Assembly: GCA_951406725.2 (NCBI GenBank)
Contig: OX597817.1
Location: 21,142,001 to 21,206,000 of the forward strand
Source: Octopus vulgaris
Lineage: Eukaryota
DNA: 64,000 bases
Direction: 5' to 3'
Part shown: one piece after another, positions 1-63,320 of the stretch
How the letters are laid out: every line of letters starts with the position of its first letter
Position numbering within the stretch: the first letter of the stretch is position 1
Notes under the pieces: generated by a model
What the model saw: only the letters and a program-made list of their open reading frames with translations
Told to the model about the DNA's origin: nothing
The model's database searches: none
Position numbers and translations under genes: made by a program

Positions 1-2640
1 GACGTATGAGTATTTAAAGGAGAGGAATTACATTTTAAGTGAGTGGTAGAAAGAGAACAAAAAGGAAAAAAGCTCCAAGAAACCGCATCTATTTTCGATG
101 GATGGGTGAATATATTCGGAGCGCTGATATGCATTTTGCTATGAATTTGCATTGGGGATATGGATGATTCTGATTTTACCCGGGATTGGGCAAATGTTCT
201 AGTACAGAAATAAAATTTATATTAAATTCGACTCCAATTTTAGCATATTGTCACCAGAACAATAAATGTCCTGCTGTTAGTCTGAAACTAGTTTTAAAAT
301 ATTATCCGTAGCCTCTTAATCTTTAGGGAAAGCCCTATATATATGGTCTCCGGTCCAATAAGAGGATTCCTCTTTGATATTGCAACTGCATATTCCTCAG
401 ATGTCTCCAATCAAATCTAATCAGCAATTAACTGTATGGCAAAGGTACCCCTGTGAATGTCGAGCGCAGCCCATCTGTCGAACTTATTTACAGTATTCCC
501 TCTAGCAAATTCTTAACACGATGTTGTGGTAAATGTAACTTTCACGAATTCTCACACAGTAGCGTTGAGAGTAGGATAGCATGGTTGAGGAGGAATTTTT
601 TATCGTTAAGGTATTTCGTCTTCTATATAAATGTTAGGGATAAATATATACACACTTCTTTACATAAACGTCTATGTGTGAGCGTGTAAGTGAACGTGTG
701 CATATGAGTTTGTTTGCATCGATATGCATGAATGTACTCGCATTTAATCAATAATTGAATAGGAATTCTAGTATATTTCTGTATAGAATGGTATGCAACA
801 ATCAATTTTAAAATGGAAAATGTGTATTCAAATAAAAACGTGTAATAAATTTATTGGAAGAATATCGAACAAAATCTGAAAATTTTACAAATCAGCGAGA
901 AGTATTCATAATAATTATTGCATTATATTCTTTCTGATATCTCATAATTTGTTTGTTATTATTCCTTGTCTGTATGTACGTTGTGGTGCGGAAGTGTGTC
1001 TGTGATTTCTTACCTTTCCGAGATTTGTTAGTAAGTGACATTTTGTTTTTACTATGTTTTTTTTCTCTTTAGTGTTTTATTGGTGTTTTGTTTATCGTTT
1101 TTTTTTTCCTCTCCATTAGAAATATTGCAAAGCACAGTGAAATTTATTGCAATGCAATTTATCTTCTAATTAGTTACAATGCTCAACAAGCTAAATTAAA
1201 ATAACTCTAATGTTCAATAACTGTCGAACATATATTTAATTTCAGTTCATTTTTGAAAGAGAAGAGTGATTAGTTTGACCGGTTCGGTTATATATTATTT
1301 TTATATTTTCGTTTTAGAAATATAGTTCTGATTTTTGTCAATGTTGGAAATATTGATATGTGTGTTTAGACTGGAGTTTATTGTGGTCATTCTTGTGCAG
1401 ATTTTGATTATGACGCTGCTCACAGTGACTGCTATAAACTTTGTTAAAAATACGTTCATTTGTGAATTCGTTGATTGGTCAGAGAGATTTTCCTAAAAGA
1501 AAAAAGTATCAACAGAAGCAGTTTTATTCACAAGTTGTGTGTCTATATAGTTGTCATATATACATGGACAAATATATAAAGAAACAAATACGAACAATTT
1601 CAGAAACGCCAAAACTTCAAAAGATATACATCTATACATACATTCATATGCACACACACAAACAGATGTATATATACTTACATTTATATATCTGTGTGTG
1701 AACGTGTATGTGTTTATGTGTGTGTGTATACACATAAGCCTATGTCTATATATGCGTGCCTTAAGATAAATTGGTTCGTATTACTGGATATGTAATCCTC
1801 TATTTTGAATTGAGTTGGATTGCAGCTGTCTTCTATGTATATTGACAAGAGGTTAGATTATCTAAAGAAATAATTAAATGTTTACCCGGTGAAATATATC
1901 ATCATGAACATTCAAACGATTCTTGAAGGTAAATCACTAAATTTAGTAATACAGACTTGGCATTTAAATCAAAGATTTGAAATATTCTGTCAACTGGTAA
2001 AGCTCTCATCATTTGACAAGTAAATGAAAATACTATATTTCAATGTTTATAGATTTATGGAACGAAGATATTGACGTCTTTATGCGGGAGAATTTAAAAT
2101 ATGAATATCGTACACGCTGAATATTCCAAACATTAGCTCAGTAGAGCTATCCGTCAATATAGTTAACGCACACATATGCAACAAATCTGACGCTGACATA
2201 ATAGAGTTGCAAACCACATTTCTCTCAAATAGTACATTTTAGATAAAGAACCTGGTTCACATAAGAGAGTATCATTCTACATAACATGCAAGAATGCAAA
2301 ACGTGCATGGTCAAGACTAGTAAAGCTTTAATTATAGAGAATGAAAAGGTTTGAATGGCATCACAATACACTATAATACAGACAATGGACTATATACCTG
2401 TTGTAAGTTAGTCATCCATAGTCTGATATTCTTTGTTACTTGTTTCAGTCATTTGACTATGGCCATGCTGGAGCACCGCCTGTAGTCGAGCAAATCGACC
2501 CCAGGACTTATTCTTTGTAAACCCAGTACTTATTCTATCGGTCTCTTTTGCTGAACTGCTAAGTGACGGGTCGTAAACACACCAGCATCGGTTGTCAAGC
2601 AATGCTAGGGGGACAACACACACAAACACACACACACATG

Positions 2641-2708
<68 letters not shown>

Positions 2709-2851
2709 TACGACGGGCTTCTTTCAGCTTCCGTGTACCAAATACACTCACAAGGCATTGGTCGGCCCGGGGCTATAGCAGAAGACACTTGCCCAAGATG
2801 CCACGCAATGGGACTGAACCCGGAACCATGTGGTTGGTTAGCAAGCTACTT

Positions 2852-5041
2852 TATTTCAAAACATTTGCCATAAAGGCAGTACACAGATTAAGTTAGCTTT
2901 GCGGGCTGGACGAGGACATTAATGAGGTGAATGATAATGAAAGAAAGATGATAAGGATGGGAGAAGACAAAAAGCGCCCGCTGACTTTCGCTTCTCTAAA
3001 ACATTGTTCTTTTTAAAGATAAACACAAAACGAGGTATTAAACCTCTTACAATTTTTACAAAACGAGGTATTAATCCTCTTACAATTTTTCAATTTTTGG
3101 ACTTAAGTCCATTACTAATAATACATATCGTCCTCGAAATAGCTTGTGCCCGCGCCCTCCACCATCAACCACGCCTCCCTCAGAACGTAATCAAGTTCCG
3201 AGTTCGCGTCGCCCGGGACCAAGTTATAATCTTCATTGAGCTCCTTTAGCCCAAGCGTCACGTCGAACGCCACGGCCTCCACAGCTACCTGCGGAGGCCA
3301 TTCGGGGTCCTGTGTGAAGGCTAAAGGTGCTCCCTTGTAGTGCTCTTCCCTCACTTTTTCAATTTCTCCTCCTCTATAGAAGAGGACCAATACGTTCAGT
3401 TCTTTCGTTGGCGGCACAGTTCCCGCCAACGGTATTCCTTCTCTTGTCGGTGGCACAACCTCAACCGACGTAGTTCCGGGACATTCCGGTGCTACACTGA
3501 CAGCCGGTAATGTCCCGTTTTTCTTCCTCTTTTTCATTTTTTTCCCTTTTCAACTGAGGGAGGGTGCGTCTCCTCCGTGGCCGGAAGATTCGTCTTCCTC
3601 TCCTCATCCCTATTATCCTTTGGTGAGCACCCATTGTTGCTCACCTTCCTCTTTCGGCCTCTGGTTGAGGAGTCCTCTGCTTTCTCGGCCGTTATCGTTC
3701 CCTCTTCTAGAGGGGTTTTACTTAACTGTTCCGGGATCCTATTTTGTTCCCGAGGACAGTTCTTCTTTATGTGGCCAGACTCCAAGCACCGATGACACTT
3801 AGGGGGGCGACCCTCAAGCATCACCGGGTACCTGCACCCGGCCATTTTCTAAAAATCTGGAAGAACCAGATTGGCTGATTGGGTCCACAGGGTCAAAATT
3901 GCTTTTGACCCAACCCAAGCAGCCGCATGAAGAACTTTTACATTGAGGAGTTTAGTTTCGCTGTCATCCAGACACCGGCGGATAGTCTCCTCTATCCACT
4001 CGGGTTCTATGTCGGGTGACAATCCGCAGATCCAAGCTTTCATCAATTTCTTTTTATTGTACGTGGGCAGGAATAAGATTTCCTTACCCTCCAGGGGTTT
4101 GCTAGCAAATTTGCAAGCCTCTTCAGGGGTGTCAAATAGCAACCATACCGTTGCATATTTGACACCACTGGAAATGAATTTAATTGTTGGCAAATACTCT
4201 ACCAAATCCTCCTCAATTGCCGTCTTTTCGAATAGGGCGATGGTGTCGAGTGCCTTGGAGTAGGTTCTCAACACCATTGTCCCATCTTCACGGTCTTTTA
4301 ACCACTTTTTAGGTGGTATGATTTCCCACTCCAAAATTTTGTTATTTTTCATTGCCATGTTTTTTTTAAAGTATATTCAAATTAAACTCAAAAAGCAGGA
4401 AGAAAAAAGTTCAAAAGTCCAAATAAAATTTGATAGATTTTTGAAAAAACAAAAAAGGAGAAAGCACAACAGAAGGGAAGAAATCAACGGAAAGTCGCAA
4501 TAAAGAAAAAAAACAAAAGGGGGGGGGGGTTAAATGAAGTTCAAAAGAAAATTAATAAACAGAAAAAACACAGCAAAAATATTCTGGCCATTCGGTACTC
4601 CCGGCCTGGGTTGAACCTGGAACGCCGCAACTGCAACACAACCTCCACAAAAATGGGTCCGAAAGGTAATCCAATAGTGGCTTATTTTTATAATTTTCTT
4701 GCGAAGTATTAGTTTTCACAATTCATAAAAGTTCTTCACAGCACAATACAATTCTCACAATTACGTGAGAAAAATATTTACTCAATTTATCGAAGACGGA
4801 TACGCCCCCAAACATTTTCTCAGCGAGAAAAATATATTTGCCACATGTCGGCAGAATCAGAATTCTGAATCCAGTAGGACTTCCTGCCTGTAAAAAACAA
4901 TTCTGAACAAAAACTCTCACTGGACCCAGAAAACAGAATCTTACCTTACATGGGGCTTCCAAAATTGTCAATTCAAGACGGCTTCAAAGGCACGTCTTCA
5001 CCGCTTCAGTGTCAAACACAACACTGACTCGCACATGCGCA
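2852..5041 (-). mobile_element. ORF1-only (HAL1-like) non-autonomous L1/Tx1-type retroelement, 2190 bp
   Basis: Perfect 15-bp TSD gttagcaagctactt at 2837-2851 and 5042-5056. It has a ~680 bp 5'UTR, a gag-like ORF1 and a ~260 bp 3'UTR ending in AATAAA that runs into the TSD. No RT or endonuclease sequence is present. Confidence 0.8.
3115..4358 (-). pseudogene. Tx1/L1-type ORF1 (gag-like RNA-binding protein with CCHC zinc knuckle), ~414 aa, one stop and one frameshift
   Basis: ORFs 4358-3849 and 3845-3534 are in the same frame, separated by a single TAG. ORF 3537-3115 follows a frameshift in an A-run. Knuckle EGRPPKCHRCLESGHIKKNC (CX2CX4HX4C) is followed by a K/E/P/T-rich tail. Confidence 0.75.
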
Positions 5042-5836
5042 GTTAGCAAGCTACTTACCACACAGCCACTCCTGAGCCTGATATGATTATTTCGGATTAA
5101 TATTCCTTCTCCAGATATTTCTTGATGAAGTGGCTGCTATAATCGGTTTTCTAACGGCTTCTTAAAAATTTTTTTGGAAGCGTCTCATCAGGGTCTCACG
5201 ATCCTCCTTCCGGAGAAGAGAAGAAAGGGGATGAAAAGGAAGCTGCACATATAATACGTAACTTAGAAGCAGCGCTATGGATGTACCAACACACACGAGA
5301 TTGAGACATAGCCGACATCATCACTTCTCATGAGGAATTCCGGAAGTAGCATCGTGAGACCACTGCTGAGACGCTTCCAAAAAATAAAAAGGAAAAGCCG
5401 TTTGAAAACCGATTATAGCAGTGACTGCATCTAAGATTATCTGAAGAAGGAATATTATTCCGAAATATCATATCAGACTATGGATGACTAAATTACAACA
5501 GGTGAATAGGCCATTGTGTGTATTATAGTGCATTGTTGTACCATTCAAGACTTTTTATTCTTTACAAACAATACACAATGCTTCAAGCGAACTACCATAC
5601 TCTCCTATCTTTAATTATAGCTTTAATGAATTAGAACTTACTTTGGTGCTCATCTTAAAACAGCACACACGTTGATAGATAATGCGATATATTTTCGTTA
5701 CCAAATGAAAAATACAATGATTACAACTCAGATATTGTAAATCCCTCAGAATCATTTAAAATTGAATAGCATCATAGTGTTGTTGGTATTAATGTTGTTT
5801 ATGGTATATATTTTGCTTCAGAATTGTAGTGATAGC

Positions 5837-6860: not shown

Positions 6861-7445
6861 AAGGCGGCAAGCTGGCAGAAACGTTAGTACACCAGGCAAA
6901 ATGCTTAGCGGTATTTCGTCTGTATTTACGTTCTGAGTTCAAATTCCGCTGAGGTCGAATTTGCCTGTCATCCTTTCAGGGTCGATAAATTAAGTACCAG
7001 TTATGCACTGGGATCGATATAATCGACTTAATCCGTTTGTCTGTCCTTGTTTGTCTCCTCTGTTTTTAGCCCAATGTAGATAGTAAAGAAATAGATATTT
7101 CGTCTGCCGCTATATTCCGAGTTCAAATTCCACCGAGGTCGACTTTGCTTTTCCTCCTTTCGGGGTCGATTAAATAAGTACCAGTTACGCACTGGGGTCG
7201 ATATAATCGAATTAATACGTTTGTCTGTTCTCAATTGTCCTCTCTGTGTTTAGCCCCTTGTGGGTAGTAAAGAAATAGGTATTTCGTCTGTATTTACGTT
7301 CTGAGTTCATATTCCGCCGAGGTCGACTTTACCTTTTACACTTCGGGGTCGATAAATTAAGTACCAGTTACGTACTCGGGTCGATGTAATCGACTGGCAC
7401 CCTCCTCAAAACTTTCGGGCTTTGAGCCTAGAGTAGAAAAGAATA
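6861..7445 (+). mobile_element. tRNA-derived SINE, family C (MetaSINE-like central domain), with a triplicated internal unit
   Basis: Head aaggcggcaagctggcagaa...gagttcaaattcc. The unit gaggtcgactttgcctttcatcctttcggggtcgataaattaagtaccag occurs 3 times with a ~180 bp period. Single-unit copies at 23271 and 54552. Confidence 0.85.
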
Positions 7446-12087: not shown

Positions 12088-14640
<2,553 letters not shown>

Positions 14641-17298: not shown

Positions 17299-17322
17299 GC
17301 TGTGTGGTAAGAAGCTTGCTTC
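17299..17322 (+). mobile_element. SINE family A head remnant
   Basis: gctgtgtggtaagaagcttgcttc matches the head at 62916-62939 and the reverse complement of 5043-5066. Confidence 0.7.
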
Positions 17323-18207
17323 TTTTCCTAGGATTCATTTGGTTTGTTGGTTTTGTACGAGACCGACCTCTTTTTTGGCTGTGCGACGTTTTCCCACTTG
17401 TGATGGAGGGACGTCGAACAAGAAGTTGTGAAGGCTTGACTTGTTCTGTTTCGAGCATTGAAGACTGCTCTTCCTCGTAATATATGTCGTCAGAGGAGGA
17501 GATTGAGGAGTTCTTGGAGAATATAGACAGAGCTTTGGAAGAAAGAAGCTATGCTGTGGCGACGGAAGAAAAGTGCGAAGAAATAAGGTTGGATGACGTA
17601 AGTTTAAGGGAATGCTTGAAATGGAGGGGAACGAGCTGAATGTGTTCCCCCCAAAGACGTTTTGAATGAAGTTGCGGAAAGAACCGTAAGTTATAGAAGT
17701 TACTCAGTAGAAGCCAGAAAAGCAGAAAGTATGTTCACTGTACAAATAGAAAAGGCGTTGAGACCAATCTGGCAAGGGATTTCGTACCTCGCCAGGGGAA
17801 AGAAAATTGGAACGGAAGAGGTGCGGTTTGGAAAGGTAGCTGCTACTTGGCTGCACTCAGCAGCACAGCTGGAAACGAATGAGGTTGTTTTGCCCGTTTA
17901 CCTTGGGAGACGTGCTTCCAGGGTTAGGGTGGAGGATGCAACCCCAGAAGTCGATGTAACTTGGCTGGTGGTTGCTATACTGCTTGGAATGGAGCAAAAA
18001 AGTCGTGGTCCTGCAGGCTACCAGAACTCCCCACAGGCACTGGAAATGATAAACTTTTGTAATGGTGGTACATGTTGCCGAGGAGGACTTTGAAAATTGG
18101 TGGAAAGTATCACAGTGGGAGAGTCGACTTTAAAGGTTATAGTGGAAGGGAGGATTCCGTGTTATAAATGTGGCCTTTCAGGCCACATTAGTGCGGATTG
18201 TCCTCCA
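17323..18207 (+). pseudogene. Second Tx1/L1-type ORF1 element (ATG at 17484, frameshifted), 3' part lost
   Basis: PPKDVLNEVAERTVSYRSYS / IEKAL..GKKIGTEEVRF / LETNEVVLPVY / EGRIPCYKCGLSGHISADC (knuckle 18160-18201) aligns colinearly with the ORF1 at 4358-3534. Confidence 0.75.
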
Positions 18208-21200
18208 CCACTATTTGGACTCGACTACCACGATTAACAACAGGTAGAATCTGCTTCCAGTCGCCTTCAAAAAGAACACATACTCCTCCAAACAGGGATT
18301 CGTTCACTCTGACATCACGAAAGGAACGATTCAAGCAAGTATATGAGCTTGTCACCTTGGCTGACATCATCAACAATTATTAGACTGGTTATTCTGAAGA
18401 AATGCGCAGGTGCATCCTGAGATGACACATTTCATTAGGACTCAGATATTATGTTTATGGGCACTTTGAACCGCGAATGAAATGTCCGGTCATTGTACTG
18501 CAATGTTGCCGCAATCCCAGATAAAGCTGTGGCGAGTACGACTTTTTCTCGAAACCTAGAAAATCTATACTGGCATTGATAAAATCTGTTTTATCAGTTC
18601 CACCACTCGCACTCAAGGCGAAGACCTTGTTTACTTGTTGTTGTAAAACTGATTTTACAACTATATCAAAGTTATGCTTTTGGTGAGTATTAAATACTGA
18701 GTATTGTGGGCGTCAGTAGACACTATTCGAAGACACTCTGTGTTATAGTTACTTTATTCAGCGATAATCTTTGGCATTAGTATCTGGTTTCGTTATATTC
18801 ATGTTCAGGCAGCTGGAAATCTCGAACGAGTTCAAGTTCATCTCTTTGCATTCGCTTCTGCAGACGAATCAATATTTCATTTCCAATGCAAGTTCGGAAA
18901 CTCCTTAGTACATCGAGCTCCGCCTCTCCTAGTTTCCATACACGGATTTCGGTGGTTGATAGCACCGCATGGACCATGATCTTTAATGTTGTTTCTTTGC
19001 ATTAGGTCTTGTCCTAGTTCAGTTTTCGACTCCTCCCAAAAGTTCATTGGATCAGGTGGCCGGCAGTAACTTATCATGTTGGCTAAGAAGTCGCGCAGCG
19101 AATCCCAGAAGCGAATACAGGCTGCTTCTTCCATTGCAGGGTATATTTCTTGGTCGTCCGATATCTGTTTAGTTTTCATGCATGCCTCCTGAAATGTTCA
19201 ACCTATATTTCCCTCCCCGGTCTTCAGTTAATCACAGCTAATCACACCTTTAATACATGGTGAAGGAATATGCAAAGGTGAAACATTTTTGTTTGATGAG
19301 CACTATATGGTATGGTTGGGATTCGTCCGATAGTATCAGTTTTGACATCACCATAATCACTAGCTGTACCTCGTTTTCGCTTTTGTCACGACTTGGTTTT
19401 ATTGTTCCTGGTGTAATATTTAAGAAAATCTTGATATAAAATATGTCGGAATTTTCGTCATGTTTGTTTGTTTGAAAATAAGGTGTCAGTTTAGTTATCG
19501 GTGGTCTGCCTTCCACTGCCGCAGCGACAGAAATCGAGTCGTGCACTTTGCTCATCAGGTAAAGGACACGGTAGCTTTTCGATTGTAGGAAGCTTTTGGT
19601 GTATGAAAAATCTATACAACTTCCAGAATTCTTCACTTGCAGAGATGTATCGAACGTTTACGAAGTTTTCTATATCGTTTAATACGGGAATTTGCTGTCC
19701 TGTCTACGATGTTGAGAAGACGATTCGATCTTATCCTTTTTTAATGTAATTGTACACGTGTTTCGCTGCGTGGAGGTACTGTACGACCTCGACTTTGATG
19801 TGGGTGTTGTATTTTATTGTGAGATATGGATCATATGCCACTATCCAAGAATTGTCGACTTGTGAAAAAAATATTAAATGTAAGTAAATAGTTAGTGTAT
19901 GTCATTAAAACATTCATCAGTGTAAGTTGAAAAAAGACTCACCACAAAATCTGTCTGACCATTATCGTAAATTCTATTGGTTCTTCCACCGTATACTGGA
20001 CCTATTCTGCAATACGTCGGGTAGCAATCTCTCGATATACAGGTAGTTGACCGGAAGGGTTTCGGAAACTCCTTAGTACATTGAGCTCCGCCTCTCCTGG
20101 TTTCCATACACGGACTTCGGAGGTTGATAGCACCGCACGGACCATGAATATTACGTGCCATTAATGAATTGAATAGATCCGGGTTTCGGCATTTGTTGGA
20201 TATTTCGGCACTAACGACTTTGTCTATGATTTCTTGAACAGTCGGTTTATGACGATTAGCCAGGATAAGCAACATATATCCATGTGTAAAGCCACATTTT
20301 TTGCATTCAATAGTTGGTGTATTGGCGACGACTCTTTCCAGAATGTGATTTTTCAGTAGATCATGGAGAAGTGCGTCGAGCTTGATTTTGCCAAGGAATA
20401 TCAAATCGGTAATGTGCATTTCCCCGTGGAAAGATGGCGGTCTGTATATCTATCCATTTCGGACTTGTGGTAAATGTGATGAAGTAAACTGGCTTTCCCA
20501 TTACTCTAACTATTACCAAGGCGTTTTGGAGGGCCGGGCTGGCTGTAAAATCTTGGATTTCCGGTGATAGTAGGTGGAATAATAATTCTTCTTCCAGGTA
20601 TTTATGTATCAGTTTGGTTCACAGCATCAAGAAACCCTAGGTATTTTCCTGCTATGATTGTCGTTTGATGGAGTTCTGCCAACCTTAGCCTGCTCCGATC
20701 TACTTTCGCCTACTGATCTACAACATATTGCTGTAAAAGTCTTCTACTTTGCATAAAATCATTGTCCGATTTAGTTCTTACCTGCAGTTGGCAAGCGTAA
20801 AAAATGCATTATCTTCCACTTTTACTTACACTTGTCTTGATTTTCGGCGAGCTAGAGTGTTCCTTATTTGTCCCGAAGCTCCCACTTGATGCTTTCTCCG
20901 TGTTATTTGGTGAGCTAGCGTATCTCTGCTTTATTCCGACGCTCTTACTTCCGTAACGCGGCAAATTCTATGAGCTTCCGTATTCTTATTCTGTTGAGAT
21001 TCTCTGTATTCACTGTTAGATTGTCTAGTACATTATATAGCGGCAGCTTTCTTGATAGTCCTACCAATTCCTGATTTTCGTTTCCAGGTCATAATGACGT
21101 GGAACAAAGGAAAATTTAATAAAGTATTACACGACATTATGCATGCAATCGTTATTGACAAAGTTCATAGTAGTCATACACCGATTAATAATGAGCCAAA

Positions 21201-23270: not shown

Positions 23271-23480
23271 AAGACAGCGAGCTGGCACACTCCTTAGCGC
23301 TCCAGGCAAAATGTTTAACGGCATGTCGTCATCTTTACGCTCTAAGCTCAAATCCCGCCGAGGTCGACTTTGCCTTTCATCATTTTGGCGTCGATAAAAT
23401 AAGTACTGGTTGAGTACTAGGGTCGATGTAATCGACTATCCCCTCCCGCCAAATTGCTGGCATTGTGTCCATCGTCGAAA
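23271..23480 (+). mobile_element. SINE family C, diverged
   Basis: Similar to the head and central domain at 6861-7030. Confidence 0.8.
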
Positions 23481-54551: not shown

Positions 54552-54770
54552 AAGGCGGTGATTTGGCAGAGTCATTAGCGCGCCGAGCAAAATGCTTTGC
54601 GGCATTTCGTTCGTCTTTACCTTCAGAGTTCAAACTCCTCTGCGGTCGACTCTACCATTTATACTTTAGCTCGGTAAAATAAGTGCCAGTTGAGAACTAG
54701 GGTCGATGTAAGCAAAAACTCTCCGTTCTTGCGACATTGATGGCTTTGAGTCAACATTTGAAACCAAAAT
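54552..54770 (+). mobile_element. SINE family C, diverged
   Basis: aaggcggtgatttggcagagtc..gagttcaaactcc..ggtcgac. Confidence 0.75.
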
Positions 54771-62902: not shown

Positions 62903-63320
62903 AGGCGCAGGAGTGGCTGTGTGGTAAGTAGCTTGTTTACCAACCACATGGTTCCGGGTTCAGTCCCACTGCGTGGCACCTTGGGCAAGTGTCTTCTACT
63001 ATAGCCTCGGGCCGACCAAAGCATTGTGAGTGGATTTGGTAGACGGAAACTGAAAGAATCCTGTCGCATATATGTATATATATATATGTATGTGTGTGCG
63101 TTTGTGTGTCTGTGTTTGTCCCCCTAGCATTGCTTGACAACCGATGCTGGTGTGTTTATGTCCCCGTGGCTTAGCGGTTCGGCGAAAAGAGACCGATAGA
63201 ATAAGTACTGGGCTTACAAAGAATAAGTTCCGGGGTCGAGTTGCTCGATTAAAGGCGGTGCTGCAGCATGGCCGCACTCAAATGACTGAAACAAGTAAAA
63301 GAGTAAAAGAGAGAGTAAAA
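62903..63320 (+). mobile_element. SINE family A, intact full-length copy (reference empty target site)
   Basis: aggcgcaggagtggctgtgtggtaagtagcttgtttaccaaccacatggttccgggttcagtccc..., internal (TA)/(TG) tract, tail (gtaaaaga)n. Confidence 0.92.

Follow-up and report, generated by a model that had tools for sequence, protein, structure and literature searches.

Two retroelements of the window, by which we mean the whole 64-kb stretch of Octopus vulgaris DNA analysed here, encode ORF1 only and share one fixed base of insertion in a tRNA-headed SINE that is abundant in the genome, where they have likely been copied by the endonuclease and reverse transcriptase (RT) of L1/Tx1-like LINEs that end at the same base. 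The families to which they belong, herein F1 (element 1) and F2 (element 2), both insert after nucleotide (nt) 37 and before nt 23 of this SINE, which leaves an apparent 15-bp duplication, and their fixed 3′ junction, in one orientation, was shown to result from independent insertion into pre-existing SINE copies. Together with a candidate autonomous LINE (A1) and a second SINE, this adds a new target, and an unusually full set of participants, to an already known kind of site-specific LINE system. An earlier, sequence-only reading of the window had proposed a sequence-specific family; the site specificity holds genome-wide, whereas the window elements themselves are ORF1-only and need ORF2 in trans.

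Table 1 Features of the two ORF1-only elements and of the reference SINE, in window coordinates.
Feature	Position	Strand	Remark
Rest of the SINE interrupted by element 1, nt 38 onwards	2436..2836	-	
3′ copy of the 15-nt target	2837..2851	-	same as 5042-5056 letter for letter
Element 1, complete 2190-nt ORF1-only element, young family F1	2852..5041	-	
5′ copy of the 15-nt target, young T/TAAC variant	5042..5056	-	
SINE head nt 1-22, upstream of element 1	5057..5078	-	
SINE head remnant, SINE nt 13-22	17299..17308	+	nt 1-12 gone; (TATC)n tract upstream
5′ copy of the 15-nt target, SINE nt 23-37, older A-variant	17309..17323	+	last base altered
Element 2, 5′ half of an old ORF1-only element, family F2	17324..18213	+	3′ half and tail absent
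Uninterrupted SINE copy	62904..63320	+	served as reference; empty site 62926-62940

SINE positions were counted from the uninterrupted copy at 62904 (Table 1). Element 1 has SINE nt 1-37 on one side and nt 23-end on the other and is flanked by two identical 15-nt repeats, and its ORF1 (4358-3115) carries one stop and one frameshift in the window copy. Element 2 comprises a 5′ region of ~80 nt and a broken ORF1 from an ATG at 17403 (stops and frame changes), with a zinc knuckle at 18157-18204 (Pfam zf-CCHC, E 5.8e-6); its match to complete relatives ends at ~18213, as in a decayed, 3′-truncated copy. Neither a 3′ tail nor a 3′ duplication of element 2 is present within the 64-kb window, so the window alone cannot show its target duplication, and ORF2 is absent from both window elements. 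The window has three copies of the 22-nt head motif (5045-5066 on the minus strand, 17299-17320 and 62916-62937 on the plus strand), against a mean of 0.01, and never three, in 100 shuffles. The sequence-only reading had remarked that two hits at one site in 64 kb are unlikely by chance; the claim is carried by the genome-wide counts instead. The same reading had placed a second ORF1 element at the same SINE point, and the F2 family junction indeed lies in exactly the register of element 1; the 1-nt offset that it had allowed between the two junctions reflects decay of the element 2 copy, the family registers being identical. Its common orientation holds relative to the SINE, while the two elements are opposite on the chromosome. 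The proteins are, as it had stated, distant yet colinear (ORF1 identity is 22% across 199 aligned aa, E 2e-9), and DNA similarity is lacking, the sole match with E <0.8 between both regions being the 22-nt SINE head. Duplication of a single insertion was rejected, there being no DNA likeness beyond that head. Elsewhere in the window, a 708-aa open frame (12324-14450, plus strand) encodes an unrelated reverse transcriptase, 24% identical to A1 ORF2, with C-terminal motifs that we take to resemble those of restriction-type endonuclease LINEs, and fragments just downstream of the element 2 break (18877-20449, minus strand) bear a twice-occurring motif that presumably resembles a Helitron replication protein.

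The genome searched comprised 2.8 Gb in 227 contigs. With element 1 as query, F1 copies were found at 95-97% identity; 40 of the 2174 candidates were scored and 30 read, which gave 29 copies with both junctions (L057 excluded) of 2.17-2.27 kb, eight of them with an intact ORF1 of 412-414 aa. Element 2 returned at least 45 matches at 68-93% identity (mostly 69-77%), and here 40 of 274 candidates were scored and 30 loci read. The 5′ ends at these F2 loci join the SINE head in 18 cases and the tail of another element at the same 15-mer in 6, with a degraded head in 1 and nothing recognisable in 5; both junctions are visible at 12 of the 30 loci (1.56-2.18 kb). No ORF2 match was found in any of the 41 complete F1 and F2 copies (1.56-2.27 kb). 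A named database neighbour of the F1 ORF1 is from Octopus sinensis (63%), and the F1 element is covered by contigs of four runs (three organisms besides the first), in which strand, start and junctions are not readable. Near-identical F1 bodies among L031-L060 bear at least four different first 30-60 nt, which suggests that the 5′ end of F1 was replaced repeatedly.

The SINE head is colinear with tRNA genes of the same genome over ~72 nt (alignment score 58; none of 300 shuffles exceeded 51), and it is too decayed to be detected as a tRNA by ARAGORN or Rfam tRNA. The insertion site spans the D-arm to anticodon-arm part of this head, which is where the sequence-only reading had put it. That reading had further taken the target to be tRNA-like, and this stands for the head; the target itself is the SINE's own sequence and no tRNA-gene sequence. 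For each of 30 tRNA genes of 6 isotypes, retrieved as intact genes, the 15-mer differs at 5 or more of its 15 nt, a difference that speaks, as less than a full test, against tRNA genes as targets, and no A1 or F1 junction read continues into a tRNA gene, all running into the SINE or another element. Judging by eye from the letters, the putative A and B boxes of the SINE promoter flank the site. A mobilisation of the SINE into itself by A1 was likewise rejected: the 3′ end of the SINE consists of a short tandem repeat and does not resemble the tail of A1.

Site specificity was assessed at the 3′ junction, which lies at SINE nt 23 in 30/30 F1 copies and in the 30/30 best A1 copies (one with one A fewer). 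Genome-wide, A1/F1-type tails number 512, versus 3 for a reversed control pattern, and 459 of these 512 are directly followed by the exact AAG-N-AG motif, the other 53 being without it. The genome has 69,051 exact empty sites, which amounts to 1.2e-5 of strand positions (the density would be 5e-5 at an assumed 300,000 sites), and the 459/512 young tails at the site show the junction enrichment over SINE abundance by which the earlier reading had proposed to judge its case. Among F2-type tails, 27/45 have the exact motif and 18/45 do not; with up to 4 mismatches allowed, 27/30 of the F2-type loci read are at the site and 3 are clearly elsewhere. The last ~30 nt, which include a small hairpin, are shared by A1-, F1- and F2-type tails: by eye, F1 is alike to A1-type tails and F2 to older ORF2-bearing tails (L175, L184), although the likeness covers only ~30 nt and a looser form also occurs in families with other or no targets.

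The candidate autonomous LINE, A1, measures 5.45 kb and has an ORF1 (487-488 aa) with a zinc knuckle (zf-CCHC, E 4.3e-5) and an ORF2 (1140 aa: endonuclease, RT and zinc motif) that scores above Pfam cut-offs for Exo_endo_phos (4.9e-12), RVT_1 (1.9e-27) and zf-RVT (1.4e-8), with the usual catalytic motifs visible by eye. A separate ORF1 with a CCHC knuckle is also a trait of the Tx1 clade. In the 20 full-length copies, ORF2 is open in 9 and both ORFs in 3, and the upstream flank is the SINE head in 19 and an F1 tail in 1; the copies are 99.6% identical, and A1 looks recently active. An exact pattern of element end plus site has 729 matches genome-wide, and at the first 30 of these 729 junctions an ORF2 end lies upstream in 6 and ORF1 in 11. 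The site also holds older relatives with an ORF2, whose identity to A1 is mostly 54-94%, depending on the segment. A named database neighbour of the RT is from Argonauta hians (64%), and for a relative 74% identical to A1 in the RT the nearest solved structure is human L1 ORF2 (E 1.8e-67, versus 1.3e-24 for R2). A quick RT tree joins 14 elements of the same genome and 2 database proteins (one from Argonauta) in one group (SH-aLRT 99), and A1 belongs with two-ORF elements that have radiated locally and are 67-74% identical in the RT, several of which have fixed flanks of their own. No Tx1-named protein was among the homologs retrieved by homolog searches or the Atlas; A1 would be Tx1-like by domain layout and target preference, a clade placement drawn from these traits rather than from named Tx1 sequences. 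As to target preference, 30/30 A1 flanks are one repeat, against the >20% used as a criterion in PMC4494074.

Relatedness of the flanks separates independent insertion from inheritance of a single junction. Across 28 F1 copies (L059 was excluded, as another element follows it), the last 600 nt of the element are 98% identical and the SINE bodies behind them 92%, and element and flank relatedness are uncorrelated (Mantel rho −0.04, p 0.84); the corresponding value for 10 F2 copies is rho 0.18 (p 0.13), and for 20 A1 copies the 99.6% of the elements compares with 92.8% for the flanking SINEs. The variant of the 3′ duplicate goes with the subfamily to which the following SINE body belongs (29:3 versus 0:13, p 8e-9, with 45/50 classifiable), single copies have private changes on both sides (L032, L331, L349), 5′-truncated inserts share the 3′ base (L154, L162, L170, L179, L180, L188, L190), and tandem stacking occurs at the regenerated 15-mer (6/30 F2 5′ ends; L047, L048, L059, L236). 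Since the flanking SINEs belong to different subfamilies and 5′-truncated inserts end at the same base, these are independent insertions, as had been argued from the window alone. A composite of SINE head, ORF1 element and SINE body that moves whole, with its junction inherited, would account for the head upstream and the body downstream in nearly all full-length copies, but it conflicts with flanks that are more divergent than the elements, fall into several subfamilies and are uncorrelated with element relatedness, with the private changes and the truncated and tandem copies just listed, and with the same junction in unrelated elements; the flank analysis rules it out, and we give it hardly any credence.

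Whereas the 3′ junction is constant, the 5′ junction is variable. The 5′ and 3′ duplicates are identical in 12/28 F1 copies, and in 8 F1 copies 9 matching bases are followed by a fixed 5′ end of the element type; joins after 9-10 matching bases are also found in A1 (L221, L223, L227) and in truncated inserts (L162, L170, L180), and in A1 L225 and L238 the 5′ repeat stays TAAC although the target is TTAC-type. From these joins we infer a stagger of ~9-10 nt, the element probably supplying the final bases of the 15-mer; truncated inserts L154 and L179 have the full 15 nt, so the top-strand cut may vary. The possibility raised by the earlier reading, that the SINE head belongs to the element's own 5′UTR, appears true only for the last 5-6 nt of the 5′ duplicate. 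Under the mechanism that we favour, an A1-type endonuclease would read the SINE sequence and place a bottom-strand nick between nt 22 and 23, reverse transcription would begin at the nick from the shared tail (target-primed reverse transcription), and the top strand would be cut ~9-10 nt downstream; a few target-like bases carried at the element 5′ end may assist second-strand priming and lengthen the apparent duplication to 15 nt. The ORF1-only elements and the second SINE would use ORF2 in trans, and ORF1, with its predicted two RRMs and zinc knuckle, would coat its own RNA. The site could instead be chosen mainly by base pairing between element RNA and SINE DNA, with a loosely specific endonuclease. 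The 5′ duplicate does retain the element's form where the target differs (A1 L225 and L238, F1 L035 and L039, and the 8 F1 copies whose 5′ end is fixed), in L050 a full target copy comes before a second one, and 53/80 young inserts occupy TAAC, the variant to which the A1 leader corresponds, versus 44% of exact empty sites (p 5e-5); yet leaderless 5′-truncated inserts and a second SINE without the leader reach the same 3′ base, and the 3′ duplicate is linked to the target and not to the RNA, so that we consider this choice of site improbable. Steering by the RNA polymerase III machinery on the SINE promoter, rather than by DNA sequence, has a precedent in the tRNA-gene-targeting elements of yeast and Dictyostelium, which are directed by that machinery, and the octopus site does lie between two promoter-like motifs of the tRNA-like head (boxes assigned by eye). 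It is nevertheless a distinctly more improbable account, given that the tandem inserts listed above lie at a regenerated 15-mer where the promoter is already split, that the A1 and F1 junctions read never enter a tRNA gene, and that the insertion position is exact to the base. Reading of the SINE sequence by an A1-type endonuclease is the explanation that we hold to be likely.

The ORF1 proteins of F1 and F2 are 22-24% identical to each other, and in an ORF1 tree (rows with <140 aligned residues were dropped) F1-like (15 rows) and F2-like sequences (8 rows, the window copy included) form two well-supported groups. Identity to the A1 ORF1 is 28% for F1 and 39.5% for F2, neither joins A1 with support, and AU tests reject none of the three ORF1 groupings (p 0.33-0.48); no close autonomous parent of F1 or F2 was found among the ~16 two-ORF elements compared. 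With such low ORF1 identities and no supported grouping, A1 is a candidate partner of F1 and F2 rather than a demonstrated parent. A model of the F1 ORF1 core, built from a 9-row alignment, has a pLDDT of 81, and both of its halves match RRM domains (Z 8.5, 2.3 Å over 75 residues; Z 8.4, 2.6 Å over 80), such that ORF1 is predicted to consist of two RRMs followed by a zinc knuckle. The Atlas clusters nearest to the F1 ORF1 are CCHC and ZCCHC3-type RNA-binding proteins (scores 0.91-0.93).

A second short element of ~245 nt has 276 exact junctions at the site of the first SINE, and 20/20 of those read are that element. Its tail resembles the tails of other LINEs in the genome, and its other tails among the loci read are mostly elsewhere, so the site is one of several for this second SINE. 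Copies in the window lie at 6861-7395, 23271-23437 and 54552-54711 (junction loci are L331-L350); it is often inserted into its own copies, with three pieces in tandem at 6861-7395.

The families differ in the SINE variant that follows them. Behind F2-type tails the variant is nearly always A (25 A, 2 G, 0 T; n=27), as it is behind the second SINE in 96 of the first 100 junctions listed, whereas young tails precede the T variant in 97 of the first 100 listed. The A variant makes up 9% of exact empty sites (6,186/69,051), and given this share its 3/100 after young tails and 0/80 at A1/F1 junctions are fewer than expected (p 0.018 and p 5e-4, respectively). It is also older, at 80% pairwise identity (n 24) versus 96% (n 12) and 84% (n 6). 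With the A variant both rare and old, availability explains much of the succession, and a strong shift of the endonuclease from the A to the T variant was rejected; old families lie in the older SINE variant and young families in the younger ones, and availability may account for most of it. The residual preference for TAAC, the youngest variant, among young inserts (above) is real in the sample and could stem from the 5′ leader, chromatin or the endonuclease. A broader scenario, in which a guild of LINEs tracked the subfamily succession of one SINE, with endonuclease preference, RNA tail and 5′ leader changing together, and preyed on the youngest active copies through insertions that split the A and B boxes, is speculative and in our judgement rather doubtful.

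Site-specific LINEs of this kind are known. In the passages of PMC4494074 (Kojima 2015) and PMC4640811 that bear on them, Tx1 of Xenopus inserts into Tx1D, Keno into U2 snRNA, and Kibi and Koshi into microsatellites; PMC4494074 further lists Harbinger and LTR elements as Tx1 targets, and PMC4640811 tRNA genes and transposons. A1 resembles Tx1, Keno, Kibi and Koshi, as described there, in being an AP-type endonuclease LINE with a strict preference for a multicopy sequence, and differs in its target class, a SINE. The closest parallel in these passages is that of crocodilians, where Tx1-Mar LINEs and SINEU insert into Mariner (Kojima 2015, PMC4494074). Both systems combine LINEs and a trans-mobilised SINE (in octopus presumably so) at one target inside an abundant transposon, both have a duplication of ~15 nt (16 nt in SINEU-3), and in both tandem inserts sandwich a duplication and independence is argued from 5′-truncated copies. 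Unlike there, the octopus target is a tRNA-headed SINE and not a Mariner DNA transposon, the main passengers are ORF1-only protein-coding families, and the autonomous A1 looks recently active (99.6%), with ~90% of young tails at one base. ORF1-only LINEs are represented by HAL1 (L1 clade), HeT-A (Jockey) and Ag-Sponge (CR1) in passages of PMC5786205 and PMC5753468, which name no Tx1-like example and none targeting a SINE; F1 and F2 share with them an ORF1 only, a LINE-type 3′ end and the need for an autonomous partner, and may by analogy be called HAL1-like in coding ORF1 only. For an octopus, PMC13282606 lists 13 L1-Tx1 families with recent activity, and the word “target” does not occur in that paper. 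Our literature search, with Repbase Reports and subscription journals outside its coverage, listed no paper in which a LINE targets a SINE and none that deals with the targets of Tx1 elements in cephalopods.

With these results a SINE head joins the target list of site-specific AP-endonuclease LINEs, with genome-wide counts beyond a few copies, and four kinds of passenger have used one base over a long time (an autonomous LINE, two ORF1-only lineages and a second SINE). A1 is apparently intact and recently active and has a defined target with natural target variants, so the gain or shift of endonuclease specificity is directly testable, and sister families with other targets (RT 67-74% identical) offer natural controls. 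About 1% of exact-match sites are occupied (729 versus 69,051), so the effect on SINE copy number is small unless active copies are preferred. For annotation, the inserts split SINE copies and yield spurious “uncharacterized protein” genes.

Several relatives of A1 have flanks of their own. One two-ORF family (L096-L101; G000:C2:73046133-73068136 and others) has a fixed downstream flank in 6/6 copies read and forms a tandem array on C2 with a period of ~5.4 kb. Another (L084, L090) has a 3′ flank that by eye is like a hammerhead-ribozyme core, which we take to be a motif as in Penelope-type repeats; no Rfam match reached the gathering score for this flank, and none was found for the targets of four other families. 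A related two-ORF family (L104, L107, L109, L085) has one repeat as its fixed flank, a further one (L106, L108) a second, different repeat, and L110 (one copy) is flanked by a (TTA)n tract. A young related family (L061-L077, L088, L091-L094; ORF2 of 1132 aa) has varied flanks and is possibly a non-specific sister of the site-specific families; its members lie several times at the 5′ end of other LINEs and once at that of an F1-like element (L071).
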